Assembly (NCBI GenBank): GCA_018400295.1
Contig: JAGYMZ010000004.1
Location: 10,803-74,802 of the forward strand
Direction: 5' to 3'
DNA from: Bacteroidales bacterium
GTDB lineage: Bacteria; Bacteroidota; Bacteroidia; Bacteroidales; B18-G4
Length of the DNA stretch: 64,000 bases
Shown here one piece after another: positions 10,377 to 30,072 of this stretch. How positions within the stretch are numbered: position 1 is the first letter of the stretch; each line of letters starts with the position of its first letter. The translations under genes and the position numbers were made by a program. A model generated the notes under the pieces. The model searched no databases and had not been told where the DNA came from. It was given only the letters and a program-made list of their open reading frames with translations.

Positions 10377-10737
10377 CGCAAACGGTTTAAAAAAAGTAAA
10401 GATACCCAGGTTTTGCATATCCTTAACGGGACAGCCGGGAAATTACCAACAAAATCATGTTCAGGAAAACGGCTTTTTGATCCGTACGCAAATTCATACG
10501 AAGGGATCCGGGATCCTGATACGTTATACAGACAGCATTTGGCGGCAAAAGGATGCATGGTTTTTCCTCCGGCACCCTGCTCAATGCCGGCATGTGTGCA
10601 TTACAGGTAAACCGGTGCGGATCATGCGTGGCGATCAAGGTTTTATGACCGGGTCACCGGCGATGGGGGTACGTATCATAGGCTCCGGGGATAGATCCTC
10701 GGAATCCCTGAAAAAATGGGGGACAAGGCAGGCATCC

Positions 10738-15651: not shown

Positions 15652-17601
15652 ATGAGCTATATTACATTCGACAAGAATCAGCTGATCAACCTGGAATATT
15701 CCCTGGGCAAGGAACTGATCCGCTCCAACAGGGCCGGGGCTTATGGCAGTATGACCATCATATGCTGCAACACGCGGAAATACCACGGATTGCTGGTAGC
15801 GCCGCAGCCGGGGATCGATGCCGAAAACCATGTGCTGCTGTCTGCCCTCGATGAGACCGTGATACAGCATGATGCGGAGTTTAACCTCGCCATCCATAAA
15901 TACCCGGGCGGGGTCTATCACCCGAAGGGACATAAATACATACGGGATTTTGTCCTGGAACCCATGCCATACCTTATTTATCGCGTTGGCGGGGTGGTGC
16001 TGAAAAAGGAAATGGTGCTGATGGGCAAACACAACCGTGCCCTGATCAAATATACGCTGCTGGACGCACATTCCCCCACTACCCTGCGATTGCGCCCTTT
16101 CCTGGCCTTCCGCAATGTGCACAGGCTGAGCAAGGCCAACATGGACCTCCGGGATAAGTACGAACCGGTGGAAAACGGCATTAAAATGCGCCTGTATCCG
16201 GGCTACTCGCCCCTGTATATGCAGATTTCCAAAGAAGCCGAGTATGTCCATGTGCCCGGGTGGTTCTACAATATCGAATACCACGAAGAAATGATCCGGG
16301 GATATGATTACCAGGAAGACCTTTTCGTACCGGGCTTCTTTGATGTGCCCATGAAAAAGGATGAACCGGTCATTTTTGCGGCCGGGACCGGCCTGGTCAA
16401 TCCAAAGGGGCTCAAGCGGGCTTTTACCATGGAGGTGAAAGACCGCATACCCCGCGACAGCTTTGAAAATTGCCTGGTCAATGCAGCCCGGCAGTTTATT
16501 GTTCGCGGAAAAGACCGCACCGAGGTGGTTGCCGGGTTTCCCTGGTTCGGACGCTGGGGACGCGATACTTTCATCGCCCTGCCCGGTCTGACCCTGTGCA
16601 CCGGCGATGCCAAAACCTGCAGGGATGTGCTGGATACCATGGTGGCCGACCTGAACGGGCCGCTTTTCCCCAATGTGGGCAAAGGAGATGCATCCAATTA
16701 CCATTCCATCGATGCGCCCCTCTGGTTTTTCTGGGCTCTGCAGCAATATGCACAACATACCGGAAAAAAGGCCGCCATTTGGAAGGATTACGGAAAAAAA
16801 ATGCGCATGATCCTCAATGGATACAGGGATGGAACGGATTTTAACATCCATATGCAGGATGACGGACTGATATACGGGGGCGGGCCCGGACTGGCGCTGA
16901 CGTGGATGGATGCTGTTGTGGATGGTAAGCCGGTAACACCCCGCACCGGGCTGGATGTGGAGATCAATGCCTTATGGTACAATGCCATACGCTTCAGCAT
17001 AGAAGCGGCAGAAGCCGCCGGAAACAAGAAATTCGCCGCCGAATGGCAGCCTGTGGCCGACCGCATACCGCAGTCATTTTCGGAGGCATTCTACGACAGG
17101 GAAAAAGGATACCTGGCGGATGTGGTGGACGGCGACCGGAAAGATTTCACGGTGCGCCCCAACCAGATCTTTGCGGTTTCCCTTCCATATAGTCCGGTGA
17201 GTGATGAGCTTGCATCGCAAGTGGTGGATACCGTGCAGCGGGAGTTGCTGACACCCCGCGGATTGCGGACCCTCTCGCCAAAGAACCCGGATTACAAAGG
17301 AATATATTATGGTACGCAAAAACAACGCGATCGTGCATACCACCAGGGAACCGCATGGCCCTGGTTGCTCGGCCACTTCGCGGAAGCCTACCTCAAAATG
17401 CATGGTGTTAGTGGCGTACCCTTTGTTAAAGAACTGTACAATGGCTTTGAAGAAGAAATGACAGAGGCCGGGGTCGGCACTATATCCGAAGTATACGACG
17501 GAGATCCGCCCCATAAGTCCGGCGGAGCCATATCCCAGGCCTGGAGTGTTTCGGAGCTGCTGAGGATCAGACGGATGCTGGAGGAGCTCGAGGCGGACTG
17601 A
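15652..17601 (+). CDS. Glycogen debranching enzyme (amylo-alpha-1,6-glucosidase, GDE_C type with GDE N-terminal domain)
   Basis: 649 aa. Motifs RKYHGLLV, GFPWFGRWGRDTFIALPGL, ALWYNA, and the C-terminal QGTAWPWLLGHF...ISEVYDGDPPH...GAISQAWSV are typical of the archaeal/eukaryote-like GDE family. Confidence 0.9.
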   Translation: MSYITFDKNQLINLEYSLGKELIRSNRAGAYGSMTIICCNTRKYHGLLVAPQPGIDAENHVLLSALDETVIQHDAEFNLAIHKYPGGVYHPKGHKYIRDFVLEPMPYLIYRVGGVVLKKEMVLMGKHNRALIKYTLLDAHSPTTLRLRPFLAFRNVHRLSKANMDLRDKYEPVENGIKMRLYPGYSPLYMQISKEAEYVHVPGWFYNIEYHEEMIRGYDYQEDLFVPGFFDVPMKKDEPVIFAAGTGLVNPKGLKRAFTMEVKDRIPRDSFENCLVNAARQFIVRGKDRTEVVAGFPWFGRWGRDTFIALPGLTLCTGDAKTCRDVLDTMVADLNGPLFPNVGKGDASNYHSIDAPLWFFWALQQYAQHTGKKAAIWKDYGKKMRMILNGYRDGTDFNIHMQDDGLIYGGGPGLALTWMDAVVDGKPVTPRTGLDVEINALWYNAIRFSIEAAEAAGNKKFAAEWQPVADRIPQSFSEAFYDREKGYLADVVDGDRKDFTVRPNQIFAVSLPYSPVSDELASQVVDTVQRELLTPRGLRTLSPKNPDYKGIYYGTQKQRDRAYHQGTAWPWLLGHFAEAYLKMHGVSGVPFVKELYNGFEEEMTEAGVGTISEVYDGDPPHKSGGAISQAWSVSELLRIRRMLEELEAD

Positions 17602-17687: not shown

Positions 17688-18968
17688 ATGAGAGTACTTA
17701 TGTTTGGGTGGGAGTTCCCGCCCCATATTACCGGTGGATTGGGGACGGCTTGTTTCGGCCTGACCAAAGGACTGCTGAAGCAGGCCACGGAAGTGATCTT
17801 TGTTGTGCCCAAGGCTTTTGGCGATGAAAGCCAGGAGGCTGTGCGCCTGGTGAACGCCAGCGATGTGCTGGTGGATTATACGGATAAGTCAACGCAGGAA
17901 TACTGGCGCAGGATCACCTATATGCAAATCGGTTCCAACCTCATCCCGTATGTGGGCCCGGAAGCGTTCAGGAGGATCGCTGCAGAAAGTGAGCTGGAAA
18001 AGCAGGACAGCGAGGATAAGGTGCTTTCTAAAAAGTTTGAGTTCTCGGGTAAATACGGGAAAAACCTGATGGATGAGGTGAGAAGATATGCCCTGATCGC
18101 TTCGGCCATCGCTTCCCGGTATGAATTCGATGTGATCCACGCGCACGACTGGCTTACCTATCCGGCCGGTATCGCCGCCAGAAGCGTAAGCGGTAAGCCG
18201 CTGGTAACCCATATGCATGCCACGGAGTTTGACCGTTCGGGGGAGCATGTGAACAAGGATGTATACGACATTGAGAAGAAAGGGATGGAAGAGGCCGACC
18301 GCGTGATCGCTGTCAGCAACCTGACCCGCAACGTGGTCATCCGGCGGTACGGCATCGATCCCGGAAAGGTCACCACCATCTATAATGCGGTGGAACCCAG
18401 CGAAAAGTCTGGGGTGGAGGCCCGCCGGTACGTGAAGGAAAAGGTGGTCACATTCCTGGGGCGGATCACCTTCCAGAAAGGCCCGGATTATTTTGTGGAG
18501 GCGGCCAAAATGGTCCTTGACAAAGATCCTGATGTCCGCTTTGTGATGGCCGGGTCGGGGGATATGATGAACAAGATCATCCGGCGGGTGGCGGAACTGA
18601 AAATATCCACCCGGTTCCATTTTGCCGGTTTTTTGCGCGGACAGGAAGTGGACAAAATGTTTTCCCTCAGCGATGCCTTCGTGATGCCCTCGGTGTCGGA
18701 ACCTTTCGGACTGGTACCCCTGGAGGCCATGCGATCGAATGTTCCGGTAGTCATATCCCGCCAGTCGGGGGTTTCCGAGATACTGGTGCATGCCCTCAAA
18801 GTGGATTTCTGGGATGTCCACGCCCTGGCGGATGCCATATACGGATTGCTTCATTATGAGGGACTGTCAAAAATGTTCCGCCGCTATGGCAAAGACGAAG
18901 TGGATAGCCTCAAATGGGAAAACGCTGCATTCCAGGTTAAGCAAGTATATCAAAATTTGGTCGGATAA
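17688..18968 (+). CDS. Glycosyltransferase family 4 (GT-B, glycogen-synthase-like)
   Basis: N-terminal MFGWEFPPHITGGLGTA, HAHDWLT, and the C-terminal EPFGLVPLEAM (E-x7-E) motif of retaining GT-B enzymes. It sits 20 nt upstream of the GH57 gene. Confidence 0.85.
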   Translation: MRVLMFGWEFPPHITGGLGTACFGLTKGLLKQATEVIFVVPKAFGDESQEAVRLVNASDVLVDYTDKSTQEYWRRITYMQIGSNLIPYVGPEAFRRIAAESELEKQDSEDKVLSKKFEFSGKYGKNLMDEVRRYALIASAIASRYEFDVIHAHDWLTYPAGIAARSVSGKPLVTHMHATEFDRSGEHVNKDVYDIEKKGMEEADRVIAVSNLTRNVVIRRYGIDPGKVTTIYNAVEPSEKSGVEARRYVKEKVVTFLGRITFQKGPDYFVEAAKMVLDKDPDVRFVMAGSGDMMNKIIRRVAELKISTRFHFAGFLRGQEVDKMFSLSDAFVMPSVSEPFGLVPLEAMRSNVPVVISRQSGVSEILVHALKVDFWDVHALADAIYGLLHYEGLSKMFRRYGKDEVDSLKWENAAFQVKQVYQNLVG

Positions 18969-18988: not shown

Positions 18989-20560
18989 ATGAGATCAATC
19001 TGTTTTTATTTTCAGGTACACCAGCCCTTTCGTCTGAAACCATACCGTTTTTTCAACATCGGTGATGATCACCAGTATTACGATGAGCATCAGAATAAAA
19101 TGATCATGCGCCGGGTGGCGGAGAAGTGCTACCTGCCGATGAACAAGATCCTGCTGGCCCATCTGAAGGAATACGGAGAGGCCTTTAAGATCAGCTTTTC
19201 CATTTCCGGCGTGGCCCTGGAGCAATTCGAAAGGTATGCACCGGATGTCCTGGAAAGTTTTAAGGAACTTGCCCGGACCGGTCAGGTGGAGTTCCTGGCG
19301 GAGACCTATGGACACTCGCTTTCATCACTGAAAAGCAAGGAAGAGTTTTTCCGGCAGGTCCGCAAACACAGCGATAGGACCGGAGAGTTGTTCGGACAGA
19401 AGCCGGCAACCTTCAGGAATACGGAGCTTGTATATTCGGATGAAATAGGGGAAATGGTCTCGGAGATGGGTTATAAAACCATGCTGACCGAAGGGGCCCG
19501 GCATGTTCTGGGCTGGAAAAGCCCGAATTATATGTATTGTAATGCCGTTAACCCCAAACTGAAGGTGCTGCTGAAAAACTTCAGGTTGAGCGATGATATC
19601 GCGTTTCGGTTTTCACAACGAAGCTGGGAAGAGTGGCCCCTGACTGCGGAGAAGTTCGTGGGCTGGCTTGGTGCCACAGACCCTAAGGAGGAAGTTGTGA
19701 ACCTGTTTATGGACTACGAAACGTTTGGCGAACACCAGTGGCCTGAAACGGGCATCTTTGATTTTATGCGCGCACTGCCGGCACGGGTCTTTTCCCATTC
19801 CAACTTCAGTTTCAATACACCGTCGGAGCTGGCGCAGAAGATGCAGCCCGTGGGGGCCGTACACGTTCCGTACCCCGTATCATGGGCGGACGAAGAAAGG
19901 GACCTCACAGCCTGGCTGGGCAATGAACTTCAGGATGAAGCCTTTGAAAAACTCTATGCGCTGGAGCCGAAGGTTCGTCAAGTTGAAGATGAACATCTAT
20001 GGCACGACTGGACCCTGCTGCAAACCAGCGACCATTTTTATTACATGTGCACCAAGTGGTTCAGCGACGGAGATGTGCATAAATACTTCAATCCCTATGG
20101 TACTCCCTACGATGCCTTTATCAATTATATGAATGTGTTGTCAGACTTTATCATACGCCTGGACAATGCACTGGAAGGGAAAGCACACGATACCCTCAGG
20201 GAGAAGCAAACAGAATATACCGATGAGCTGCGCAGGGTATTTAAACGCAAGAGCCGGGAGACACAGGAGCGGGTCCGCAGGGCGGTTAAAAAAGGCAGCA
20301 TTGAGTTTGGTGAGATCGTCCAGGTATCCAATAACCGTGTCAAAGAAATGATACGCGAGGTGGATACGAAAGAACTGGTCATTGCATTGCAGGATGCCAA
20401 CACGGAGATTCGTGAAAAGGTTTTCCGGAATATGGGTGTCCGGGCCAGAAAGAACTTTGATGCGTTTGAAAAGGAGCTGAAAAAGGTACGCAATAAGGAC
20501 GTAAAGAAATTCCGCGCCCGCATTGAGAACATAATGAACCGGCAGGGCCGTAAAAAATAA
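18989..20560 (+). CDS. Glycoside hydrolase family 57 alpha-glucan enzyme with a FliG_C/MgtE_N-like C-terminal extension
   Basis: GH57 conserved regions are present: FQVHQPFRL, GQVEFL, FRNTELVYS (nucleophile Glu context), MDYETFGEH (acid/base Asp context). The last ~85 aa read IREVDTKELVIALQDANTEIREKVFRNMGVRARKNF...VRNKDVKKFRARIENIMN, closely paralleling the FliG C-terminal motif. Confidence 0.85.
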   Translation: MRSICFYFQVHQPFRLKPYRFFNIGDDHQYYDEHQNKMIMRRVAEKCYLPMNKILLAHLKEYGEAFKISFSISGVALEQFERYAPDVLESFKELARTGQVEFLAETYGHSLSSLKSKEEFFRQVRKHSDRTGELFGQKPATFRNTELVYSDEIGEMVSEMGYKTMLTEGARHVLGWKSPNYMYCNAVNPKLKVLLKNFRLSDDIAFRFSQRSWEEWPLTAEKFVGWLGATDPKEEVVNLFMDYETFGEHQWPETGIFDFMRALPARVFSHSNFSFNTPSELAQKMQPVGAVHVPYPVSWADEERDLTAWLGNELQDEAFEKLYALEPKVRQVEDEHLWHDWTLLQTSDHFYYMCTKWFSDGDVHKYFNPYGTPYDAFINYMNVLSDFIIRLDNALEGKAHDTLREKQTEYTDELRRVFKRKSRETQERVRRAVKKGSIEFGEIVQVSNNRVKEMIREVDTKELVIALQDANTEIREKVFRNMGVRARKNFDAFEKELKKVRNKDVKKFRARIENIMNRQGRKK

Positions 20561-20570
20561 GGGGTACGCT

Positions 20571-21326
20571 ATGGATCTCAGGATACATGATCAGTTATTT
20601 CTGGTTACCGGCGCCAGTTCCGGATTGGGCAGGGCTGTTCTGGAAAGGCTTGTCGAAGAGGGAGCAGCGGCCATTGCTGTTGCCCGCAAGGAGGCTGACC
20701 TGCAAATGATCGCCCGGGAATATCCAAACGTGGAATACATCGCAGGGGATGTAACGCATGCAGATACATTGAAAGCCATCGAAGGGCTTGTCAGCAAACG
20801 GAAGCTCAGCGGCGTCTTTGTTAATGCCGGAGGCCCGCCGGCCATGACCTTTATGGAATCTACGCCGGATGACTGGGACCGGGCGTATGCCGGCGTATTC
20901 CGCTGGAAAATGGTGCTGGTGCAGCAACTGATCCCGCATATGCGCAGGAATGCTTATGGCCGGATACTTTTCAGTGAGAGCGTGTCGGTCGTGCACCCGG
21001 TGGAAACCCTGGTGCTCAGCAACGCCTTGAGAATGGCCGTGGTGGGCATGGCCCGTACCATTGCAAGTGAAGTGGCGGGCGACGGAATTACTGCCAATGT
21101 GATCGGTCCCGGATATCACGAGACCAATGCCATACAAAGATTGTTTGATAAAAAGAGCCGGCAGGCCGGAATAACGACGGAACAAGCACGGCAACAGACC
21201 CTTGATAAAATACCCCTGGGCAGGACGGGAGACCCGCATGACTTTGCTTCCCTTGCCGTATGGCTCCTGTCGCCGCTGTCAAATTATGTGACCGGTGAAA
21301 CATTTATGGTGAGCGGGGGAGCCTGA
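20571..21326 (+). CDS. SDR family oxidoreductase
   Basis: TGASSGLGRA cofactor motif, NAGG, and a classical short-chain dehydrogenase length of 251 aa. It starts 10 nt after the GH57 stop. Confidence 0.85.
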   Translation: MDLRIHDQLFLVTGASSGLGRAVLERLVEEGAAAIAVARKEADLQMIAREYPNVEYIAGDVTHADTLKAIEGLVSKRKLSGVFVNAGGPPAMTFMESTPDDWDRAYAGVFRWKMVLVQQLIPHMRRNAYGRILFSESVSVVHPVETLVLSNALRMAVVGMARTIASEVAGDGITANVIGPGYHETNAIQRLFDKKSRQAGITTEQARQQTLDKIPLGRTGDPHDFASLAVWLLSPLSNYVTGETFMVSGGA

Positions 21327-21445: not shown

Positions 21446-24400
21446 ATGAAACCCGATTATTTATTTGAAGTCAGCTGGGAAATTTGTAATAAAGTGGGCG
21501 GGATCCACACGGTGATATCCACCAAGGCCATTAGCCTGGCCGGCGATCTGAAGGATAATTACATCCTTATTGGTCCCGATGTGTGGAAAGAGACCAGCGG
21601 CAACCCGGATTTTATTGAAGACCCCTATATTTATCGTGCCTGGCGGGAAAAAGCCAACCAGGAAGGCCTGAACATTCGCGCCGGACGATGGAACGTAGCC
21701 GGACAACCGGTGGTGGTGCTGGTGGATTTTACCCCCTATTTTACTGAGAAAGACAAGATATTTTTTGAATTCTGGGAAAAGTATAAGCTGGATTCCCTTT
21801 CCGGGCAATGGGATTATATCGAGCCCGCCATGTTCGGGTATGCAGCCGCCAGGGTGATCGAAAGTTTTTACGATTTTAATGTGTCGGCCCAGGACAGGCT
21901 CGTGGCACAGTTCCATGAATGGATGACAGGCACGGGGGTTTTGTACCTGAAAAGTCATGTGCCCCAGGCCGCCACTGTTTTTACCACCCATGCCACCGTC
22001 ATGGGCCGCACCATAGCCGGAAACGGCATGCCGCTGTATCCTGACCTGGAAAAGTTCGATGTCCGAGAGCTTAGCCGTGAACTTAACGTGGCGTCCAAAC
22101 ATTCGCTTGAAAAAACAGCCGCCGGGGAAGCCGATGCCTTTACTACGGTCAGTGAGATCACGGGAAAGGAATGCAAGGCTTTCCTGGAACGGGACTGTGA
22201 TGTGATCACCGTGAACGGCTTCGAGGATTCGTTCGTTCCTGCGGAAGAAGCATATGAAGGAAAACGCAAGGCAGCACGGGAAACATTGCGGGGCGTGATG
22301 CACGGGCTGCTTAACCAGGAGGTTCCGGAGGATAGCCTCATGGTGATCAACAGCGGACGCTATGAGTATAAAAACAAGGGCATAGACCTGTATATTGATG
22401 CGCTGGGGAAACTGAACCGCTCGGCAGACCTGAAAAAAGATATCATCGGGGTCATCGCTGTTCCGGCCCACCAGTCGGGCATGCGCCTGAACCTCCGGGA
22501 GCGGCTGAATAATCCGGATTTCAGCAATCCTGTGTCCGGGGAATACCTGACACACCATCTTTACGATGAGGCCAATGACCCCATCCTGAACCGCATCAGG
22601 GAAAACGGGTTGAACAATTCACCGGACGACCGTGTCAAGATCATTTTCATCCCGGCATACCTGAACGGCCAGGATGGCATGTTTGATCTGGAGTATTATG
22701 ATTTTCTGGCCGGGTTCGACCTGTCCGTTTTTCCTTCGTATTATGAGCCCTGGGGATATACACCCATGGAAAGTGCCGCCTTCCGCATCCCGACCGTTAC
22801 GGCCACCTATGCGGGCTTCGGCCTGTGGGTGCAGTCGCAGGCCCGCAAAGATCAGCAAGGTGTGTATATCCTTGACCGCGACAAGCCGGATGAAGCATCG
22901 GTGGAAACCATCGCCGGGATCATCCGCTCTTTTGCCAGCGGTTCGAAGGAATTCACGGACCGGGCACGCCGGGATGCGTACGAAATATCCCGCATGACCC
23001 TGTGGTCTGAGTTTATCCGCTTCTATTACGAGGCTTATGCTGTGGCCCTGGAAAAATCCCTGTCGCGCGAGCACCTCTTCACAGGGAAATTGCAACAATA
23101 CCCCTATTTTGATTTTAAGGAAACACAAAAGGAGGGGCCTTCCTGGAAGAAGCTGGAGGTCAAGGCCGAAATACCGGAAAAACTGGAAGGTCTTCATGAT
23201 CTGTCCAGGAACCTCTGGTGGTCGTGGAACTGTGAGGCTACCGAACTTTTTGAGAAGATTGACCCGGAGAAATGGGAAGCATTCCAGCACAACCCCATTG
23301 TATTGCTGGAATCCTTACCCTATGAACGCTGGAGGGAGCTGGAGCAGGATGAAGAATTCGTATCTCAGTTTGGCCGGGTGTATGATCACTTTGTTTCATA
23401 TTGCGAAAAATCCCCGGCAAATGATGAAGGGCAGATCGCTTATTTCAGTATGGAGTTCGGTCTGCATGAGTCCTTGAAGCTGTATTCGGGTGGACTTGGT
23501 GTGCTTGCAGGGGATTACCTTAAGCAGGCCAGCGATTCCAATAAGGATATGGTCGGGGTGGGACTGCTATACCGTTATGGGTATTTTCAGCAGAAACTTT
23601 CGGCTTTCGGTGAGCAGATCTCCGAATATGAGCGCCAGTCTTTTTTTACGCTCCCCCTGCATCCGGTGAAGGATGAGCAGGGCCAGTGGGTAACCCTGAG
23701 CATGGCCTTGCCCGGACGTACGCTCAGGGCCAGGATATGGAGGGTGGATGTGGGACGCATACCCCTTTATCTGATGGATACGGACTTTGATGAGAATGCT
23801 GAAAAAGACCGGGCCATTACCCACCATCTTTATGGGGGCGATAACGAACAGCGCTTGCGGCAGGAACTGCTGCTTGGCGTCGGGGGCATACGCTTGCTCA
23901 ATATCCTGAACATCCGCCCCGATGTATATCACATCAACGAAGGCCACGCTGCTTTCATCGGCATAGAACGGCTGCGCGGGTTGACACAGGACCATAAGCT
24001 GGCTTTTGACGAAGCCCTGGAGATCGTGCGGGCCTCCACGCTTTTTACAACCCATACACCTGTGCCGGCCGGACATGATACATTCAGCGAGGATCTGCTG
24101 CGGACCTATATCCCGCATTATGCCGATCGCCTGAACATCGGTTGGGACCATTTTATGGGCCTGGGCAGGGCAGGGAAGGAAAACAGCGGTCCGTTCTCGA
24201 TGAGCATCCTGGCCCTGAAAATGGCCCAGGAAGTGAACGGGGTGAGCCGCATACACGGAAATGTCACCAGACAAATGTTTTCTCCCCTTTATCCCGGATA
24301 TTATCCCGGTGAATTGCATATCGGGCACGTTACCAACGGCATCCATTATCCGACCTGGACCGCCCGACAGTTCAAGCGTATGTACGATAATGAGCTTGGC

Positions 24401-25669
24401 AGGCGTTTTTTCAACGATCAGTCGAACCACAGCCTGTGGCGGAAGATCCACCAGGTTCCTTCAGAGGCGCTCTGGAAGCTTCGCTTTGAAATGAAAAAGA
24501 AGCTCATCGATTTTTTGAAGCGCCGGATCGGCCATGAGATGACCCAACGGCAGGATCCGCCCAACCTGGTGCTGAAAGCTGTGGAGGCACTGGATCCGGA
24601 CAAGCTGACTTTTGGGTTTGCACGGCGCTTTGCAACATACAAGCGGGCTCACCTGCTGTTCAATAACCTGGACAGGCTGGCAGGCCTGCTGGGTGATCCC
24701 GCCAGGCCGGTGCAGATCATTTATTCGGGCAAGGCACATCCCAATGATAAAGCCGGACAGGACCTGATCAAAAGGATCATAGAAATATCCAAAATGCCGG
24801 CGTTCATCGGTAAGGTTTTTTTCCTGGAAAATTACGATATGAACGTAGCCCGCATGTTGGTGCAGGGAGTGGACGTGTGGTTGAACACACCCACACGGCC
24901 GCAGGAAGCTTCCGGTACCAGCGGTGAGAAGGCCATCATGAACGGGGTGCTGAACTTCAGCGTTCTGGACGGATGGTGGGCGGAAGGATACCGCCCCGGT
25001 GCCGGATGGGCCGTCAGTGAAGGCAGGACATACGACAACCAGCAGTTCCAGAATGAGCTGGATGCAGAGACCATTTACAATATACTGGAAAACAATATCA
25101 TACCCCTGTATTATGACAGGAGTAACAAGGACATACCGGTTGAGTGGCTTGCTATGGTCAAGAACTGTATTTCAGACGTGAATCACATGTTTACGATGAA
25201 GCGCATGCTGGATGAATATTATGAGAAATATTACCGCAAGCTTGTTGGCCGCAGCCGGGAAATGAAAAAGGATGCCTATGCGCTTGCCGCCAGAATGGCA
25301 ACGTGGAAAAAACATATACTTTCAGCCTGGGACGGCATCGGGGTGGTATCCATGAAGCTTCCGGATCCTGCCGGGTATCCCCTGAAGCTGGGCGATGCGT
25401 TCAAAGCGGAGATCAAGTTGAACACCAATGGCATAGAAGCCGGAAATATTGGCGTGGAACTGATATTCGGACACCATATGTCGTCCGGCAGCACAGATCC
25501 CCTGGGTATCGTAGCCCTGGAACTGGTCAACGCATATAAAGAAACCGCTACATACGCCATCAGCGTACCGGTGGAATATACCGGCAAAATGGACTTTTCT
25601 TTCCGGATATTCCCGGTCCACCCGTCTTTGCCTCACAGGCAGGATTTCGGGCTGGTGAAATGGTTGTAG
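21446..25669 (+). CDS. Fusion protein: GT3 (eukaryote-type) glycogen synthase N-terminal half plus GT35 alpha-glucan phosphorylase C-terminal half
   Basis: The N-terminus FEVSWEICNKVGGIHTVISTKA...FHEWMTG...YYEPWGYTPMES is the GT3 glycogen synthase pattern. From about aa 590, YFSMEFGLHESLKLYSGGLGVLAGDYLKQASD, NEGHAAF, and PQEASGTSGEKAIMNG (PLP-Lys context) match the alpha-glucan phosphorylase family. It is a single 1407-aa ORF with no internal stop. Confidence 0.9.
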   Translation: MKPDYLFEVSWEICNKVGGIHTVISTKAISLAGDLKDNYILIGPDVWKETSGNPDFIEDPYIYRAWREKANQEGLNIRAGRWNVAGQPVVVLVDFTPYFTEKDKIFFEFWEKYKLDSLSGQWDYIEPAMFGYAAARVIESFYDFNVSAQDRLVAQFHEWMTGTGVLYLKSHVPQAATVFTTHATVMGRTIAGNGMPLYPDLEKFDVRELSRELNVASKHSLEKTAAGEADAFTTVSEITGKECKAFLERDCDVITVNGFEDSFVPAEEAYEGKRKAARETLRGVMHGLLNQEVPEDSLMVINSGRYEYKNKGIDLYIDALGKLNRSADLKKDIIGVIAVPAHQSGMRLNLRERLNNPDFSNPVSGEYLTHHLYDEANDPILNRIRENGLNNSPDDRVKIIFIPAYLNGQDGMFDLEYYDFLAGFDLSVFPSYYEPWGYTPMESAAFRIPTVTATYAGFGLWVQSQARKDQQGVYILDRDKPDEASVETIAGIIRSFASGSKEFTDRARRDAYEISRMTLWSEFIRFYYEAYAVALEKSLSREHLFTGKLQQYPYFDFKETQKEGPSWKKLEVKAEIPEKLEGLHDLSRNLWWSWNCEATELFEKIDPEKWEAFQHNPIVLLESLPYERWRELEQDEEFVSQFGRVYDHFVSYCEKSPANDEGQIAYFSMEFGLHESLKLYSGGLGVLAGDYLKQASDSNKDMVGVGLLYRYGYFQQKLSAFGEQISEYERQSFFTLPLHPVKDEQGQWVTLSMALPGRTLRARIWRVDVGRIPLYLMDTDFDENAEKDRAITHHLYGGDNEQRLRQELLLGVGGIRLLNILNIRPDVYHINEGHAAFIGIERLRGLTQDHKLAFDEALEIVRASTLFTTHTPVPAGHDTFSEDLLRTYIPHYADRLNIGWDHFMGLGRAGKENSGPFSMSILALKMAQEVNGVSRIHGNVTRQMFSPLYPGYYPGELHIGHVTNGIHYPTWTARQFKRMYDNELGRRFFNDQSNHSLWRKIHQVPSEALWKLRFEMKKKLIDFLKRRIGHEMTQRQDPPNLVLKAVEALDPDKLTFGFARRFATYKRAHLLFNNLDRLAGLLGDPARPVQIIYSGKAHPNDKAGQDLIKRIIEISKMPAFIGKVFFLENYDMNVARMLVQGVDVWLNTPTRPQEASGTSGEKAIMNGVLNFSVLDGWWAEGYRPGAGWAVSEGRTYDNQQFQNELDAETIYNILENNIIPLYYDRSNKDIPVEWLAMVKNCISDVNHMFTMKRMLDEYYEKYYRKLVGRSREMKKDAYALAARMATWKKHILSAWDGIGVVSMKLPDPAGYPLKLGDAFKAEIKLNTNGIEAGNIGVELIFGHHMSSGSTDPLGIVALELVNAYKETATYAISVPVEYTGKMDFSFRIFPVHPSLPHRQDFGLVKWL

Positions 25670-25872: not shown

Positions 25873-26619
25873 ATGAAACTTTTGGAAGGCAAAACCGCAT
25901 TGATCACCGGAGCTTCCCGCGGCATAGGCCGTGAAATTGCCCTCGCATTTGCACGGGAAGGGGCGCACATTGCATTCACGGACCTGAAAAGAGATGAGAA
26001 TATGGATGCCCTCGCAACCCAGGTTGAAGGGATGGGTGTGAAATGTCAGGGGTACGCCAGCGATGCCAGCGCCCTTCAGGAGGGTGAGAACCTGATAAAA
26101 GATGTTGTGGCGGTGTTCGGCCGCATCGATGTCCTGGTGAACAACGCAGGCATAACCCGCGATAACCTGCTGTTGCGCATGGGTGAGCAGGACTGGGATC
26201 TGGTCGTCAAAGTAAACCTGAAATCCGTCTTTAACCTGACCAAAGCCGTGCAGCGTACGATGATCAAACAGCGCAGCGGTTCCATTGTGAACATGAGCTC
26301 CGTTGTGGGCGTCAGCGGTAACGCCGGGCAGTCGAACTATGCCGCCAGTAAGGCCGGCATCATCGGGTTTACCAAATCCATAGCCCAGGAGCTGGGGTCG
26401 AGGAATATCCGGTGCAATGCCATTGCTCCGGGATTTGTGGAAACGGAAATGACAAAGGCGCTGCCGGAAGAGGTGCGCAATGCATGGGTTGATAGCATAC
26501 CCCTGAAAAGGGGCGGCACCCCCGGGGATGTGGCGCGCGTGGCACTGTTCCTGGCATCTGACCTGTCGGCCTATGTCTCGGGACAGGTCATCAGTGTCTG
26601 TGGCGGCATGAACACATAA
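25873..26619 (+). CDS. fabG: 3-oxoacyl-[acyl-carrier-protein] reductase
   Basis: LEGKTALITGASRGIGREIA, NNAGITRDNLL, SSVVG..GN.GQSNYAASKAG, and the C-terminal GQVI.V.GGM are the canonical FabG pattern. Confidence 0.9.
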   Translation: MKLLEGKTALITGASRGIGREIALAFAREGAHIAFTDLKRDENMDALATQVEGMGVKCQGYASDASALQEGENLIKDVVAVFGRIDVLVNNAGITRDNLLLRMGEQDWDLVVKVNLKSVFNLTKAVQRTMIKQRSGSIVNMSSVVGVSGNAGQSNYAASKAGIIGFTKSIAQELGSRNIRCNAIAPGFVETEMTKALPEEVRNAWVDSIPLKRGGTPGDVARVALFLASDLSAYVSGQVISVCGGMNT

Positions 26620-26704: not shown

Positions 26705-28798
26705 GTGAATATTGGTCTGATCACAGAATATCCAATCTGGTTTGTCATCCTTTGCATTTTGCTGGGTGTGGCGTATGCAGCCATCCTGTATTTCAGGAAT
26801 GCCCGGGATGAATTGCCTTCCGCCTTATCACGGGGCCTGGCTGTTGTGCGGGCAGTGACCATCACGGTGCTGGCTTTTTTATTGCTGTCGCCCCTGCTCC
26901 GGACAACACATCATCATGTGGAAAAGCCCGTCATCGTGATCGGGCAGGATAATACAGTGTCTGTTACGGAAAGGGATACCGTTGCAGCCGGGCCCTATCA
27001 GCAGGAGCTGGAGGCGTTTGTCCGTGATCTGGGTGATGATTATGATGTGCGTTTCTATACGGTGGGGGAAGAAACCCGGCCCGCTACCCTGGATTCATTA
27101 CCACTGACGTTCCATGAGAAAAGCACCGATCTTTCCTCGTTCTTTGAGCTGGCTTCCCTGAGGTATGCCCATACCAACGCGGGTGCGCTGGTGCTGGCCT
27201 CTGACGGTATTTATAACCGGGGGATGAATCCGGTCTATTCAACGGACAACCTTACAAAGCCTGTGTTTACGATCGCTCTTGGCGACACGGCCCGGCAGAA
27301 GGACCTGCTCATAAGACGTGCGAATTATAACCGCATGGCTTTTCTGGACAACGATTTTCCGGTGGAAGTGGTCCTGCAGGCATTCGATTGCGAAGGGCAG
27401 GAAGCGGTGGTAACCGTGAGCCACCAGGGGCGCAATGTGTTCAGGGAATCCCTGAACATACCCTCCAGCCGCTATTCCGGGACGGTACGCATGTTGCTGC
27501 CGGCGGAGGAACCCGGCCTGCAGCCATACACGATCCGGACCACCATTTTGGAAAATGAGATCAATAAAAAGAACAATACACGGCAGATCTATGTCGATGT
27601 GCTCGATTCCCGGCAAAAGATCCTGATCCTGGCTAATTCGCCACATCCGGATGTTACCGCCATCAAGCAGGCCATGCAAAGGAATTACCAGTTTGAAACG
27701 GAAGACCTTTTGCTGGATGATTTTTCCGGATCTTTGGACGACTATGACCTGGTCGTATTTCACCAGATCCCGTCCCGCAACCGCCGGTCGGTTGCGATGC
27801 TCGAGGAGGCCGGGAATTCCCGTGTACCCGTGCTATTTGTGGTGGGGGAGCAGACGGACCTGAATTTGTTGAATACATTCCCCTCGGGATTGACCATAGA
27901 AATGGCCGGTGGTCAGACCAATGATGCACAGCCTGTGTTCAACGGGAATTTTACCGCGTTCCGGTTACAGCCCCACACCCTCGATGTGCTGCCCTTCTTC
28001 CCCCCGCTATCTGTTCCTTTTGGTAAATACCGCATGGTCCCGCCGGTATCTGTGTTGTTTTACCAGCGTGTGTCCGGACTTCAGACAGAGGATCCCTTGC
28101 TGCTGTTCAGTGCTCTGGAAGGCGAAAAGACCGGTGTTCTGTGCGGGACCGGTCTGTGGAAGTGGAGGATGCGCAGTTATTCCAGGACGGGCGACCACGA
28201 TGCATTCGATGACATCATCAACCGGATGGTCCAATACCTGGCCCTGAGGGTGGATAAACGCAGGTTCCGTGTGGAAGTCGAACAACAGGTCCCCGAAAAT
28301 GAAAACATTATGTTTTATGCGGAGCTTTATGACGAGGGTTATGAGCCGGTGCCCGGAGAGGATATTTCACTGGTGATCCGGGATGAAGCCGGCAATGATT
28401 ATGATTACACCTTCAGTGCTTCAGAAAATGCTTACGTTCTTGACGCCGGCAAGCTGGAATCCGGAAAATACAGTTATACGGCCAAAGCCAGTCTGGGAAC
28501 GGAGGTTTTTGAAGAAAAAGGTGCCTTTTCCGTGACGGCGGTGGAAGTGGAAACCCTTGTTACACGGGCCGACCATCAGCTGCTGTACCGCCTGGCCCGG
28601 CAAAATGACGGCATCATGGTGTATCCCGGAAACCTGAAGGCGATATCCGAGGCCATGGATCAACGGGAAGATATTAAGCCCGTCCTGTACAGCGAAAAAA
28701 GATATAAGGCATTCATCGACCTTCCATGGCTGTTTGCCGTATTGCTCATATTGTTGTCTGTGGAATGGTTTGCCCGCAAACGGGGCGGCAGTTACTAA
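26705..28798 (+). CDS. Large membrane-anchored hypothetical protein
   Basis: 697-aa ORF with a GTG start per the track, N-terminal TM helices and a C-terminal TM helix (LPWLFAVLLILLSVEWFARKR). It recalls a conserved Bacteroidota family of unknown function. No catalytic motif recognised. Confidence 0.6.
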   Translation: MNIGLITEYPIWFVILCILLGVAYAAILYFRNARDELPSALSRGLAVVRAVTITVLAFLLLSPLLRTTHHHVEKPVIVIGQDNTVSVTERDTVAAGPYQQELEAFVRDLGDDYDVRFYTVGEETRPATLDSLPLTFHEKSTDLSSFFELASLRYAHTNAGALVLASDGIYNRGMNPVYSTDNLTKPVFTIALGDTARQKDLLIRRANYNRMAFLDNDFPVEVVLQAFDCEGQEAVVTVSHQGRNVFRESLNIPSSRYSGTVRMLLPAEEPGLQPYTIRTTILENEINKKNNTRQIYVDVLDSRQKILILANSPHPDVTAIKQAMQRNYQFETEDLLLDDFSGSLDDYDLVVFHQIPSRNRRSVAMLEEAGNSRVPVLFVVGEQTDLNLLNTFPSGLTIEMAGGQTNDAQPVFNGNFTAFRLQPHTLDVLPFFPPLSVPFGKYRMVPPVSVLFYQRVSGLQTEDPLLLFSALEGEKTGVLCGTGLWKWRMRSYSRTGDHDAFDDIINRMVQYLALRVDKRRFRVEVEQQVPENENIMFYAELYDEGYEPVPGEDISLVIRDEAGNDYDYTFSASENAYVLDAGKLESGKYSYTAKASLGTEVFEEKGAFSVTAVEVETLVTRADHQLLYRLARQNDGIMVYPGNLKAISEAMDQREDIKPVLYSEKRYKAFIDLPWLFAVLLILLSVEWFARKRGGSY

Positions 28799-28809
28799 AA
28801 AGCGGACCC

Positions 28810-30072
28810 ATGGCTCAAACTGTTTTTTTTGTCATTGTTGGGATATTGATATTCAATTATTTGCTGGAGCAATTTTTGGACTATCTGAATGCTACCTGCT
28901 GGTCGGACACCCTTCCCCCGGAACTGGCGGACATCTACGATGCAGAAAAGTACAAACGCTCCCAGCAGTACCTCAGGTGGAAGCAGCGATTCAGCACCAT
29001 GACCGATGCCTTTTCTTTTCTGGTCATGATGCTTATGTTGTTTTTAGGTGGCTTTGCACTGGCTGACAGCCTGGTCCGGGAAGTAACCACCCATCCCATA
29101 CTCATGGCCCTCTTGTTTTTCGGCATGCTTGGGCTGGCTGCCGATCTGATCTCCATCCCGTTCTCCGCCTATAATACCTTTGTCATTGAAGAACGTTTTG
29201 GTTTCAATACCACAACGGTCAAAACCTTCATTCTCGACCGGTTCAAGGGATGGGTTGTCGGCGCGCTGATCGGCGGCGGATTGCTGGCCCTGATCGTATG
29301 GATCTATGAGAGTTCCGGGCAGTGGTTCTGGTTGATTGCCTGGGTTGCCATATCTGCATTCATGATCTTTATGTCCATGTTCTATTCCAACCTCATCGTA
29401 CCCTTGTTCAATAAGCAACGGCCCCTGGAAGAGGGGGAGCTCAGGGATGCCATCGAAGGCTTTGCAGAAAAGGTCGGGTTTAAGCTGAAAAATATATATG
29501 TGATCGACAGTTCCAGGCGTTCCACCAAGGGCAATGCCTATTTTACAGGGCTGGGTGCAAAGAAGCGTATCGTATTATACGACACCCTGATCGGGAAGCA
29601 CAGCGTGGAAGAGCTTGTTGCTGTGCTGGCCCACGAGATCGGCCATTACAAGAAAAAACATACGGTTAAAAATATCTTCCTGTCCCTGCTGCAGACGGGC
29701 ATCATGCTATACATCCTCTCCTGGTTCCTCAAATCGCCGGTACCGTCGGCTGCCCTGGGTGCGCAAGAGCCCGGCTTCCATATGTCTGTGCTTGCTTTTG
29801 CCCTGCTCTACAGCCCCTTGTCCATGTTCATAGGCCTGGCCATGAACGGCTTATCCAGGAAACATGAATATCAGGCCGACCGTTTCGCAGGCGTGAATTA
29901 CCGTCCGGAAGCCCTGGCTATGGCCCTGAAAAAGCTGTCGGTGGATAACCTGAGCAACCTGAGGCAGCACCCGGTGTATGTTTTCTTTAACTATTCCCAT
30001 CCTCCGCTGTTGAAACGCCTGGAAGCCCTCAGACATATAAATGGCCGCAGGGACCGAACCAATGGTTCCTGA
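28810..30072 (+). CDS. M48 family metallopeptidase (Ste24/HtpX-like)
   Basis: Multi-TM N-terminal half, the HEIGHYKKKH zinc motif and a downstream E..AD motif. Start at the ATG at 28810 (MAQTVFFVIVG); the upstream ORF extension overlaps the previous gene. Confidence 0.85.
   Translation: MAQTVFFVIVGILIFNYLLEQFLDYLNATCWSDTLPPELADIYDAEKYKRSQQYLRWKQRFSTMTDAFSFLVMMLMLFLGGFALADSLVREVTTHPILMALLFFGMLGLAADLISIPFSAYNTFVIEERFGFNTTTVKTFILDRFKGWVVGALIGGGLLALIVWIYESSGQWFWLIAWVAISAFMIFMSMFYSNLIVPLFNKQRPLEEGELRDAIEGFAEKVGFKLKNIYVIDSSRRSTKGNAYFTGLGAKKRIVLYDTLIGKHSVEELVAVLAHEIGHYKKKHTVKNIFLSLLQTGIMLYILSWFLKSPVPSAALGAQEPGFHMSVLAFALLYSPLSMFIGLAMNGLSRKHEYQADRFAGVNYRPEALAMALKKLSVDNLSNLRQHPVYVFFNYSHPPLLKRLEALRHINGRRDRTNGS

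Follow-up and report, generated by a model that had tools for sequence, protein, structure and literature searches.

A fused glycogen synthase and alpha-glucan phosphorylase that retains the catalytic residues of both halves in a Bacteroidales glycogen cluster

Glycogen synthesis and phosphorolytic degradation are opposing activities, and a single gene in the window analyzed here, a 64,000-nucleotide stretch of a Bacteroidales genome, appears to place both of them on one polypeptide. A sequence-only reading of this locus asked how futile cycling is avoided by such a protein and whether one of its halves is regulatory. We address these questions by establishing whether the fused gene is real, what its two halves have retained, how it may work and how widely it is distributed.

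Continuity and genomic context of the fused gene

The gene is one unbroken ORF that starts with ATG and encodes 1407 aa before its stop codon; no internal stop, frame change or frameshift was found anywhere in it, the junction of the two halves included, in line with the continuity claimed earlier. An ORF of this length with the domain scores reported below cannot have originated by chance. The NCBI protein 'MAG: alpha-glucan family phosphorylase [Bacteroidales bacterium]' is 100% identical to the fusion. All of the best 120 database homologues are 1397-1437 aa long with a query coverage of 100%, and 48 other species-representative genomes encode both halves in one intact ORF longer than 1300 aa. 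Because of these two observations an assembly artefact is ruled out, and the single fused gene is confirmed.

The reading in which a missed stop or a compensated frameshift merged two adjacent genes in the MAG draws on a related clade that has two adjacent in-frame genes, often one stop codon apart, where a single base error would mimic a fusion. However, the window linker lacks a Met where the split phosphorylase genes start, its length is typical of fused forms, and in a tree of the phosphorylase half the window protein clusters with fused forms, outside the split clade. Together with the independence of the 48 intact fused ORFs and the thousands of full-length database proteins, this leaves the artefact reading scarcely credible and effectively refuted.

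The fusion is the last gene of a glycogen cluster with a conserved order, preceded by genes for a GH133 debranching enzyme, a GT4 enzyme and a GH57 enzyme (Table 1). The GH133-type gene is syntenic across many loci, while the role of GT4 enzymes in glycogen metabolism has been raised as a question (PMC11046441). The GH57 family includes glycogen branching enzymes. Downstream of the fusion lies a terminator-like site, although the region does not clearly exceed shuffled controls in its number of such sites.

Table 1. Features of the glycogen cluster and the fused gene (nucleotide positions in the window; residue numbers of the fusion protein)
Feature	Position	Strand	Evidence
GH133-type amylo-alpha-1,6-glucosidase (glycogen debranching enzyme, archaeal type)	15652..17601	+	Pfam GDE_C, GDE_N; TIGR01561, 366 bits
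GT4 glycosyltransferase, starch-synthase-like N-terminal half	17688..18968	+	under every NCBIfam cutoff; syntenic
GH57 enzyme, C-terminal FliG_C-like extension	18989..20560	+	domain matches; syntenic
Fused glycogen synthase / alpha-glucan phosphorylase (KEGG K16153 type)	21446..25669	+	ORF reading, database match
GT3 glycogen synthase module, aa 1-540, GT-B fold	21446..23065	+	Pfam, alignment, AF2, Foldseek
Synthase E-X7-E motif, E434 to E442, inside SYYEPWGYTPMES	22745..22771	+	matches Gsy2p E509, E517
Inter-domain linker, aa 541-575	23066..23170	+	alignment, AF2 pLDDT, conservation
DUF3417, N-terminal alpha-helical domain of clade-2 phosphorylases, aa 576-677	23171..23476	+	Pfam PF11897, E 4e-33; ScGP alignment
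GT35 phosphorylase catalytic core, aa 664-1265	23435..25240	+	TIGR02094; ScGP alignment E 3e-273
Codon of K1162, predicted PLP-binding lysine, inside EASGTSGEKAIMNG	24929..24931	+	ScGP alignment, conservation
C-terminal beta-sheet domain typical of clade-2 phosphorylases, ~aa 1297-1407, boundary approximate	25334..25666	+	ScGP alignment reaching last residue
Terminator-like hairpin then T-run, 48 nt past fusion stop codon	25717..25737	+	weak evidence

Domain order and linker

The proposed assignment and order of the domains, GT3 followed by GT35, are supported by domain HMMs and by alignments to the Segatella copri phosphorylase ScGP and to eukaryotic glycogen synthases (GS). The three motifs quoted in the sequence-only reading are all located in the translation, with FEVSWEICNKVGGIHTV at aa 7-23, YYEPWGYTPMES at aa 432-443 and EASGTSGEKAIMNG at aa 1154-1167. 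Its estimate of the junction (23100-23250) overlaps the linker, but the linker begins slightly upstream, at 23066. The linker sequence is hypervariable, yet the R541-P565 spacing is kept at 22-31 residues in the 49 fused ORFs; in the window protein the whole linker spans about 35 residues. No block of the protein is less conserved than 541-560 (0.24), pLDDT in the AF2 model falls below 50 at aa 551-573, and the linker is predicted to be disordered.

Synthase half

The Pfam model Glycogen_syn (PF05693) matches the N-terminal half with 347.5 bits (E 2e-103; best stretch aa 8-338), and a separate alignment to the human, worm and yeast glycogen synthases covers the C-terminal Rossmann half (aa 368-543). 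In the AF2 model the mean pLDDT of this half is 82, and its best Foldseek fold matches are eukaryotic GS structures (TM 0.70-0.77). Identity to the eukaryotic GT3 synthases (Gsy2p, GYS1, C. elegans GS) is only 26-29%, but PF05693, the GT-B fold and the catalytic and UDP-binding residues are common to all of them. Alignment to these three enzymes assigns E158, H182, R188, R305, K311, Y417, E434 and E442 as catalytic or donor-binding residues, the retained equivalents of Gsy2p E169, H193, R199, R320, K326, Y492, E509 and E517; all eight are invariant or nearly so in the 49 fused ORFs, which come from several phyla.

In contrast, the residues of the eukaryotic G6P site are replaced (H280V, Q283E, N284E, H286Y, K290R, H500D), as is the regulatory arginine cluster (R580K, R581E, R583T, R589D, R592E). 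About 50 residues of Gsy2p 364-442 or GYS1 371-444 are absent from the fusion (query 346-367), a region that we take to be the site of the long helices mediating the eukaryotic GS tetramer. A long helix of this kind has been placed in the GS C-terminal domain (PMC11046441), and its mapping onto the gap is tentative. The phosphorylatable N- and C-terminal tails of eukaryotic GS have no counterpart in the fusion, and glycogenin, the partner of the eukaryotic enzymes, does not accompany it among the annotated ORFs.

Phosphorylase half

By its domain content and alignments, the remainder of the protein (aa 576-1407) is a clade-2 GT35 alpha-glucan phosphorylase nearest to ScGP, the structure of which is available (PDB 9L6I and related entries; PNAS 2026, PMC12912991). 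NCBIfam TIGR02094 (alpha-glucan family phosphorylase) matches aa 664-1265 with 840 bits against a cutoff of 191.7 bits, and Pfam Phosphorylase (PF00343) matches aa 828-1176 (E 3e-31). ScGP, a stand-alone protein of 852 aa, aligns end to end with aa 562-1407 (E 3e-273), its N-terminal loop (residues 1-23) matching the linker end of the fusion. [quoted passage not shown] Conservation falls within this last domain.

All eight core residues of ScGP are kept, namely E832 (E278 in ScGP), H870 (H316), R1060 and R1061 (R507, R508), Y1065 (Y512), K1066 (K513), R1136 (R583) and K1162 (K609). The alignment of K1162 with K609, the PLP Schiff-base lysine of ScGP (PMC12912991), bears out the PLP-lysine context noted earlier. 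Seven of the residues are invariant in the 49 fused ORFs; the exception is R1136, where R occurs in 17, K in 23 and other residues in 9 of them. ScGP works in both directions, its asymmetric pentamer wraps glycogen, and AMP, of which R583 marks a distal site, inhibits it via decamer formation (PMC12912991). Because the position equivalent to R583 varies among the fused ORFs, AMP-driven decamer control may not be general in fusions.

Probable retention of both activities

Pseudoenzyme domains are common in fusions, and opposing activities on one chain look wasteful. One half might accordingly be catalytically dead and kept as a glycogen-binding, scaffolding or regulatory module of the other, a reading to which we give very little credence. 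By alignment both halves hold the full set of catalytic residues and keep it across the 49 fused ORFs; no loss of the kind envisaged by the sequence-only reading was seen. Mean pairwise identity is about equal for the two halves (48% and 55%), and ScGP, the closest stand-alone homologue of the C-terminal half, is an active enzyme. Since the catalytic residues are invariant or nearly so in both halves and the halves are about equally conserved, a dead or regulatory half is unlikely at the sequence level, which answers the question raised at the outset. The pairwise identities of the two halves correlate (r = 0.79, reached by 0 of 2000 permutations in a Mantel test), in support of their co-inheritance.

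Proposed mode of action

We consider it likely, by analogy with characterized relatives, that the fusion is a bifunctional enzyme of the K16153 type, with both activities present, held on the glycogen particle and with direction set by metabolites. The N-terminal half would use UDP-glucose to lengthen alpha-1,4 chains, like the UDP-glucose-dependent synthase of Prevotella bryantii, a species that has no glgC (PMC7935935), and the C-terminal half would release glucose as glucose-1-phosphate (G1P) using phosphate and PLP. Like ScGP, the latter may assemble via its DUF3417 helical domain into a ring gripping the glycogen particle. The 60-kDa N-terminal synthase domain would have to fit ScGP-type pentamers or decamers. 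Fusion would guarantee a 1:1 stoichiometry of the two enzymes, and through the tether both would sit on one particle, where the synthase could reach the chain ends on which the phosphorylase acts. Because the synthase has neither the eukaryotic G6P pocket nor the arginine cluster and apparently lacks most of the oligomerisation helices, it is probably metabolites that limit futile cycling, rather than covalent modification of the synthase or its control by G6P. The controlling factors would be the supply of UDP-glucose, the level of phosphate and, as in ScGP, AMP acting on the phosphorylase half. Some concurrent synthesis and breakdown is probably tolerated, and glycogen cycling has been reported for Fibrobacter, of the same FCB group, and energy spilling for P. 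bryantii (PMC4432691).

These two documented cases also favor a reading with no two-state switch, in which the fusion runs deliberate simultaneous synthesis and degradation, either for energy spilling or for outer-chain trimming with GH57 and GH133 that sets particle architecture. Obligatory 1:1 co-expression follows from the fusion, and the synthase half has no recognisable eukaryotic off-switch (H280V, Q283E, N284E, H286Y, H500D and the replaced arginine cluster). We nevertheless find this reading distinctly improbable, with one UTP spent per cycle and an off-switch, the AMP-induced decamer, present in ScGP (PMC12912991). Moreover, in Fibrobacter, where cycling is documented, synthase and phosphorylase are encoded by separate genes (PMC6204037), so cycling does not need a fusion.

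It is also unlikely that the phosphorylase half, or the neighbouring GT4, is mainly synthetic and substitutes for glycogenin by making or maintaining short alpha-1,4 primers from G1P, extended by the tethered GT3. Eukaryotic GT3 synthases cannot start chains and depend for a primer on glycogenin, a protein not known from prokaryotes (PMC11046441). ScGP catalyses synthesis, and its Km for G1P slightly improves on those of known phosphorylases, but its synthesis kcat is much below theirs (PMC12912991). No GT8 or glycogenin-like gene was found among the annotated ORFs of the window, and the fusion sets a putative primer-maker and an elongator on one chain. Against this, cellular phosphate-to-G1P ratios favor phosphorolysis, phosphorylases themselves normally require a primer, and lineages with split genes or a phosphorylase alone manage without linkage.

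Distribution and splitting of the fusion

Matches to the fusion were found in at least 600 species-representative genomes, Planctomycetota, Syntrophales and Deltaproteobacteria MAGs among them. The placing of such fusions in Bacteroidota by the sequence-only reading was right, and they are common there, not rare. KEGG lists the architecture as K16153, 'glycogen phosphorylase/synthase [EC 2.4.1.1 2.4.1.11]' (KO definition in PMC8307300), with the same domain order and length (about 1400-1440 aa); the window fusion shows no architectural difference from this group, of which it is one member, and is 55-67% identical over 100% of its length to proteins bearing K16153-type names. JGI product names include 'glycogen phosphorylase/synthase' and 'phosphorylase/glycogen(starch) synthase', while the NCBI name of the window protein mentions only 'alpha-glucan family phosphorylase'. 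K16153 is an annotation category for which no experimental paper was found in the literature, and full-text searches turned up neither biochemistry nor a structure of the fused enzyme, which agrees with the earlier remark that such fusions are not mechanistically understood.

Bacteroidaceae, Prevotellaceae, Porphyromonadaceae and Paludibacter, in a Bacteroidales clade that includes Prevotella and Phocaeicola, have orthologous halves in equal order and orientation as adjacent genes, but on two polypeptides. In Prevotella-type genomes, for instance, the phosphorylase gene directly follows a separate gene for the GT3 synthase. At the split loci the synthase gene ends directly after the last GT3 helix and the phosphorylase gene begins about 10 residues ahead of the conserved P-x-W motif. 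When a neighbour-joining tree of the phosphorylase half was computed, with no bootstrap support, the 15 split loci all grouped in one clade that is embedded among fused forms, which suggests that the split pairs arose by one later fission of an ancestral fusion. The adjacent, co-oriented halves of this clade provide Rosetta-stone support for the fusion. Some Prolixibacteraceae relatives keep the cluster and the phosphorylase with no GT3 within 8 kb. Since both these loci and the split clade manage without it, covalent linkage of the halves is not essential.

Other fusions, such as GlgA-GlgB (Waddlia, Estrella) and TreS-Mak/Pep2, likewise combine two storage-glucan enzymes of a single pathway in one polypeptide (PMC7935935, PMC11046441); however, they join consecutive steps of the same direction, whereas the window fusion joins opposing synthesis and phosphorolysis. 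The fusion is real and already known, and because it is common in Bacteroidota and catalogued as K16153 its presence is ordinary; its remaining interest lies in the coordination of the two opposing activities.

Integrity of the fused reading frame

The sequence-only reading had proposed that a single polypeptide joins a GT3 glycogen synthase to a GT35 alpha-glucan phosphorylase, and this interpretation of the fusion is supported. The ORF comprises 1407 codons without an internal stop, and its ATG is the earliest start codon past the preceding upstream stop. The three motifs that had been quoted for it were recovered at aa 7-23, 432-443 and 1154-1167, and all three Pfam models named for checking its domains (glycogen synthase, DUF3417 and phosphorylase) matched the protein. 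While the fused ORF and its domains stood, the estimate of the junction (near nt 23100-23250) did not: the junction occupies aa 541-575 (nt 23066-23170), and the frame runs through it with neither stop nor frameshift.

The exact protein sequence is already deposited in NCBI. The best 120 of 6376 database homologues all measure 1397-1437 aa at a query coverage of 100%, and several of them bear JGI names such as "glycogen phosphorylase/synthase" or "phosphorylase/glycogen(starch) synthase". A distribution scan using one genome per species gave at least 600 matches, from which 80 loci were kept; in 48 of these, both halves are encoded by one intact ORF that exceeds 1300 aa. Because of these full-length homologues and the 48 intact fused ORFs, a merged-gene or frameshift artefact is ruled out, as it is by the continuity of the ORF and by the grouping of the window protein with fused forms.

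The synthase half

The N-terminal half (aa 1-540) matches the Pfam model Glycogen_syn (PF05693) with 347.5 bits against a cutoff of 27 (E 2e-103), and the window ORF and the 48 others (49 fused ORFs) are all alignable over the GT3 region. Residues 5-543 align in two blocks with human GYS1, the Caenorhabditis elegans synthase and yeast Gsy2p (whole-sequence E-values roughly 1e-84 to 1e-78). When positions are read off the Gsy2p row of the alignment, E169, H193, R199, R320, K326, Y492, E509 and E517 of the yeast enzyme correspond to E158, H182, R188, R305, K311, Y417, E434 and E442 of the fusion. These eight catalytic or nucleotide-sugar-binding residues are invariant or nearly so in the 49 fused ORFs. 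The AF2 model of aa 1-610 (mean pLDDT 82.3, pTM 0.79) retrieved yeast, human and worm glycogen synthases as its top 39 Foldseek matches in the PDB (TM 0.67-0.77, E down to 2e-43), and the synthase half is thus predicted to adopt the GT-B twin-Rossmann fold of solved GT3 structures.

The regulatory elements of the eukaryotic enzymes were not found in the alignment of the synthase half. In Gsy2p numbering, the glucose-6-phosphate (G6P) pocket is replaced at H280V, Q283E, N284E, H286Y, K290R and H500D, and the arginine cluster at R580K, R581E, R583T, R589D and R592E, with R587 kept. The aspartate at the H500 position (D425) is present in 48 of the 49 fused ORFs. Judged by the pocket and the cluster, the fusion synthase does not appear to be a eukaryote-type enzyme that is activated by G6P and inhibited by phosphorylation. 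A further difference from Gsy2p is the absence of about 50 residues between positions 346 and 367 of the fusion (Gsy2p 364-442). This segment is presumably, on a provisional mapping, the site of the long helices through which the eukaryotic enzyme assembles into its tetramer.

A review mentions a long helix of such kind in the C-terminal domain, and states that Bacteroidetes own a eukaryote- or DPANN-like GT3 synthase (PMC11046441). For Prevotella bryantii, a passage in PMC7935935 cites the lack of glgC and the use of a UDP-glucose synthase. From family membership and this biochemistry we infer that the fusion synthase would use UDP-glucose as donor for alpha-1,4 elongation.

The phosphorylase half

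The C-terminal half (aa 576-1407) is matched by Pfam DUF3417 (PF11897) at aa 576-677 (E 4e-33) and by Pfam Phosphorylase (GT35) at aa 828-1176 (E 3e-31). The NCBIfam model TIGR02094, "alpha-glucan family phosphorylase", scored 840.2 bits against a cutoff of 191.7 and was covered over all of its 600 positions (1-600). The cutoff of NF041129, the Thermococcales maltodextrin phosphorylase equivalog, was missed (756 bits vs 1500), and on these scores that model represents a related subfamily and not the same protein.

The closest structural reference is ScGP, the stand-alone clade-2 GT35 phosphorylase of Segatella copri (852 aa; PDB 9L6I and related entries), to which aa 562-1407 align end to end (ScGP residues 8-851, E 3e-273). 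Both the DUF3417 helical N-domain and the extra C-terminal beta-sheet domain of the clade-2 type are present in the fusion. The PLP lysine K609 and the functional residues H316, R507, R508, K513, Y512 and E278 of ScGP correspond to K1162, H870, R1060, R1061, K1066, Y1065 and E832, and the distal-site residue R583 corresponds to R1136. The first seven of these fusion residues are invariant in all 49 fused ORFs; R1136 is kept in the window protein and is variable in the family, with R or K in 40 of 49. With catalytic residues thus conserved in both halves, as the proposed alignment check had asked, the possibility, raised as a question, that one half is regulatory finds no support, and a dead or regulatory half is rejected as unlikely.

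ScGP works in both directions, assembles into an asymmetric pentamer by way of its N-terminal helical domain and wraps glycogen particles; AMP inhibits it, partly through the stacking of two pentamers into a decamer (PNAS 2026, PMC12912991). Fusions to a synthase are not mentioned in that paper.

Linker and co-inheritance of the two halves

The linker follows the final GT3 helix (aa 521-539) and ends at a conserved P-x-W-K motif; it is predicted to be disordered (AF2 pLDDT below 50 for aa 551-573) and is the least conserved block of the fusion protein (0.24). Its length, measured as the distance between R541 and P565, is nevertheless confined to 22-31 residues throughout the 49 fused ORFs, those of Planctomycetota and Syntrophales metagenome-assembled genomes (MAGs) among them. 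The full tether of the window protein comes to about 35 residues, up to roughly 100 Å if extended. The halves are conserved about equally, with a mean pairwise identity of 48% for the synthase and 55% for the phosphorylase. Their pairwise identities correlate strongly (r = 0.79; Mantel test, 0 of 2000 permutations), which is consistent with long co-inheritance as one unit.

Distribution and origin of split genes

The fused state was found in Rikenellaceae/Alistipes, Dysgonomonas, many Muribaculaceae, Lentimicrobiaceae and Chitinophaga rupis, and beyond these in a Flavobacteriales MAG, Planctomycetota and Syntrophales. In a second, split-adjacent state, a synthase gene of about 560-590 aa neighbours a phosphorylase gene of about 855-900 aa; its carriers are Phocaeicola vulgatus, Bacteroidaceae, Prevotella, Paludibacter, Porphyromonadaceae and some Muribaculaceae. 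In a third state, observed in Draconibacterium, Prolixibacteraceae and one Bacteroidales MAG (L069, L070, L074, L077 and L079), a phosphorylase alone follows GH133-GT4-GH57, and no GT3 gene occurs within 8 kb. Either the synthase gene has been relocated in these genomes or the GT4 of the cluster is itself the synthase; the role of this GT4 in glycogen metabolism is called unresolved in the review (PMC11046441).

When the phosphorylase half was placed in a neighbour-joining tree, built without support values and therefore indicative only, the 15 split loci all fell into a single clade nested within the fused forms, which suggests that the split pairs stem from a single fission. The same nesting implies that ScGP descended from a fused ancestor, its N-terminal loop being a candidate remnant of the linker; the N-terminus of ScGP is much like those of the split Prevotella sequences.

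Both genes share one reading frame in 13 of the 15 split loci (L032, L033, L034, L037, L039, L042, L043, L045, L047, L051, L055, L057 and L065), and in five of these the two stop-free stretches are parted by one stop codon alone. Measured in 12 of the in-frame loci, the spacing between a fixed synthase anchor and the phosphorylase ATG took nine values between 54 and 114 nt, all multiples of three. Programmed stop-codon readthrough in the split lineages was rejected as unlikely: most of the stops are TAA, some stand in tandem (TGA-TAA, TGA-TAG), and the split phosphorylase genes have an ATG of their own (MKIK...).

The contigs of L032 and L033 are labelled Lachnospiraceae and Acutalibacteraceae (Bacillota), yet their genes are split pairs of Prevotella or Bacteroidaceae type and fall among Bacteroidales in the phosphorylase-half tree. 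These contigs are probably mis-binned.

Gene context

Features of the window discussed in the text (nt positions in the window)
Feature	Position	Strand	Remark
T9SS-sorted cadherin/Ig-like surface protein	7818-10418	-	
GH133 archaeal-type debranching enzyme	15652-17601	+	upstream of fusion
GT4 glycosyltransferase	17688-18968	+	upstream of fusion
GH57 enzyme	18989-20560	+	upstream of fusion
SDR (short-chain dehydrogenase)	20571-21326	+	between GH57 and fusion
GT3-GT35 fusion	21446-25669	+	1407 aa
FabG-like reductase	25873-26619		downstream of fusion
697-aa ORF	26705-28798		
M48 peptidase	28726-30072		
dnaA	34606-36042	-	
Phosphate transporters (PHO4-family; Na/Pi-cotransporter-PhoU)	40987-43260, 45802-47502	-	

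The order GH133-GT4-GH57 followed by the fusion is kept in many Bacteroidales loci and in one Planctomycetota MAG; a Deltaproteobacteria MAG has only a partial cluster (GH133-GT4). None of glgC, galU, pgm, GT5 glgA or GT8 was seen among the larger annotated ORFs of the 64-kb window. A terminator-like hairpin past the fusion stop is weak, with site counts not clearly above shuffled controls, and a promoter scan gave nothing clear, the sigma-70 consensus being unsuitable for Bacteroidota.

The SDR gene is extra to this window: in related loci GH57 is directly followed by the fusion, and no close SDR homologue was found there by tblastn (best 24-28% identity, on the downstream FabG-like gene). 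The FabG-like reductase gene is conserved in six related loci (L001, L002, L041, L056, L061 and L067). About 95 C-terminal residues of the GH57 ORF (aa 424-518) resemble the FliG C-terminal domain (Pfam PF01706, E 1.9e-14; NCBIfam fliG, E 4.5e-11). This extension is kept only in the closest related loci (L001, L049, L053 and L056), the remaining GH57 homologues stopping near aa 390-450, and a flagellar-switch domain is odd on a glycogen enzyme. The 697-aa ORF matches no Pfam or NCBIfam model; L001 and L056 have counterparts of it (35-39% identity) on the downstream side of the fusion. As listed, the 3' end of the 697-aa ORF and the beginning of the M48 peptidase ORF share about 70 nt. The window also encodes two phosphate transporters and a T9SS-sorted surface protein, the latter consistent with Bacteroidota. 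Since dnaA is present, the window may lie near the chromosomal origin.

Annotation status

KEGG lists K16153 as "glycogen phosphorylase/synthase [EC 2.4.1.1 2.4.1.11]" (PMC8307300), an entry in routine use in metagenomic pathway tables. The fusion aligns with the JGI "glycogen phosphorylase/synthase" proteins at 100% coverage and 55-58% identity and, by its sequence, is assigned to this type of single polypeptide with GT3 N-terminal and GT35 C-terminal. As the architecture is abundant and has its own KEGG orthology entry, and as the exact sequence has been deposited, there is nothing new in its existence: it is already catalogued and very common. In the open-access literature and bioRxiv we found no paper in which the fused enzyme is characterised or so much as discussed.

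The NCBI product name of the identical entry and of many full-length relatives is only "alpha-glucan family phosphorylase", which hides the 540-aa synthase half, whereas the JGI and KEGG names give both activities. Because the NCBI name covers the phosphorylase only, pipelines that trust it will overlook the glycogen synthase of these organisms.

Proposed mechanism and significance

The fusion combines two complete, conserved catalytic modules with a flexible tether of limited length and lies in a dedicated glycogen cluster. By analogy with characterised relatives, the N-terminal half would elongate chains from UDP-glucose, while the C-terminal half would phosphorolyse glucan chains and may oligomerise and bind particles as ScGP does. 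The tether would keep one synthase per phosphorylase (1:1 stoichiometry) on the same particle. Since the synthase has none of the eukaryotic control elements, direction would most plausibly be set by metabolites, namely by UDP-glucose supply, phosphate and the action of AMP on the phosphorylase, the AMP response being extrapolated from homologues. The UGPase of P. bryantii is activated by fructose-1,6-bisphosphate (PMC4432691). Given that Fibrobacter is documented to cycle glycogen and P. bryantii to spill energy (PMC4432691), some glycogen cycling is probably tolerated. Less probable alternatives would have the phosphorylase half make primers, or would see the fusion as serving deliberate cycling or trimming.

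A more elaborate arrangement, which we consider rather improbable, would be a ScGP-like pentameric ring around the particle, with five UDP-glucose synthase domains swinging over the same chain ends on tethers of tuned length (22-31 residues). Such a self-contained, glycogenin-independent "glycogen particle machine" would be primed or trimmed by the phosphorylase sites or by GT4, and AMP-driven ring stacking would switch it between growth and breakdown. If this were true, the narrow range of linker lengths and the close co-evolution of synthase and phosphorylase halves would reflect a defined geometry and not mere co-expression.

The modest value of the fusion lies in the question of how two opposing enzymes on one chain are coordinated. 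In related Bacteroidota the same two enzymes are found fused, split-adjacent, or at loci that lack the synthase, a clean natural experiment; together with the 2026 cryo-EM structure of the stand-alone homologue, it makes the coordination of opposing glycogen reactions directly testable. Glycogen turnover of gut and rumen Bacteroidota matters in turn for energy spilling, for persistence and for sugar fluxes relevant to the host.
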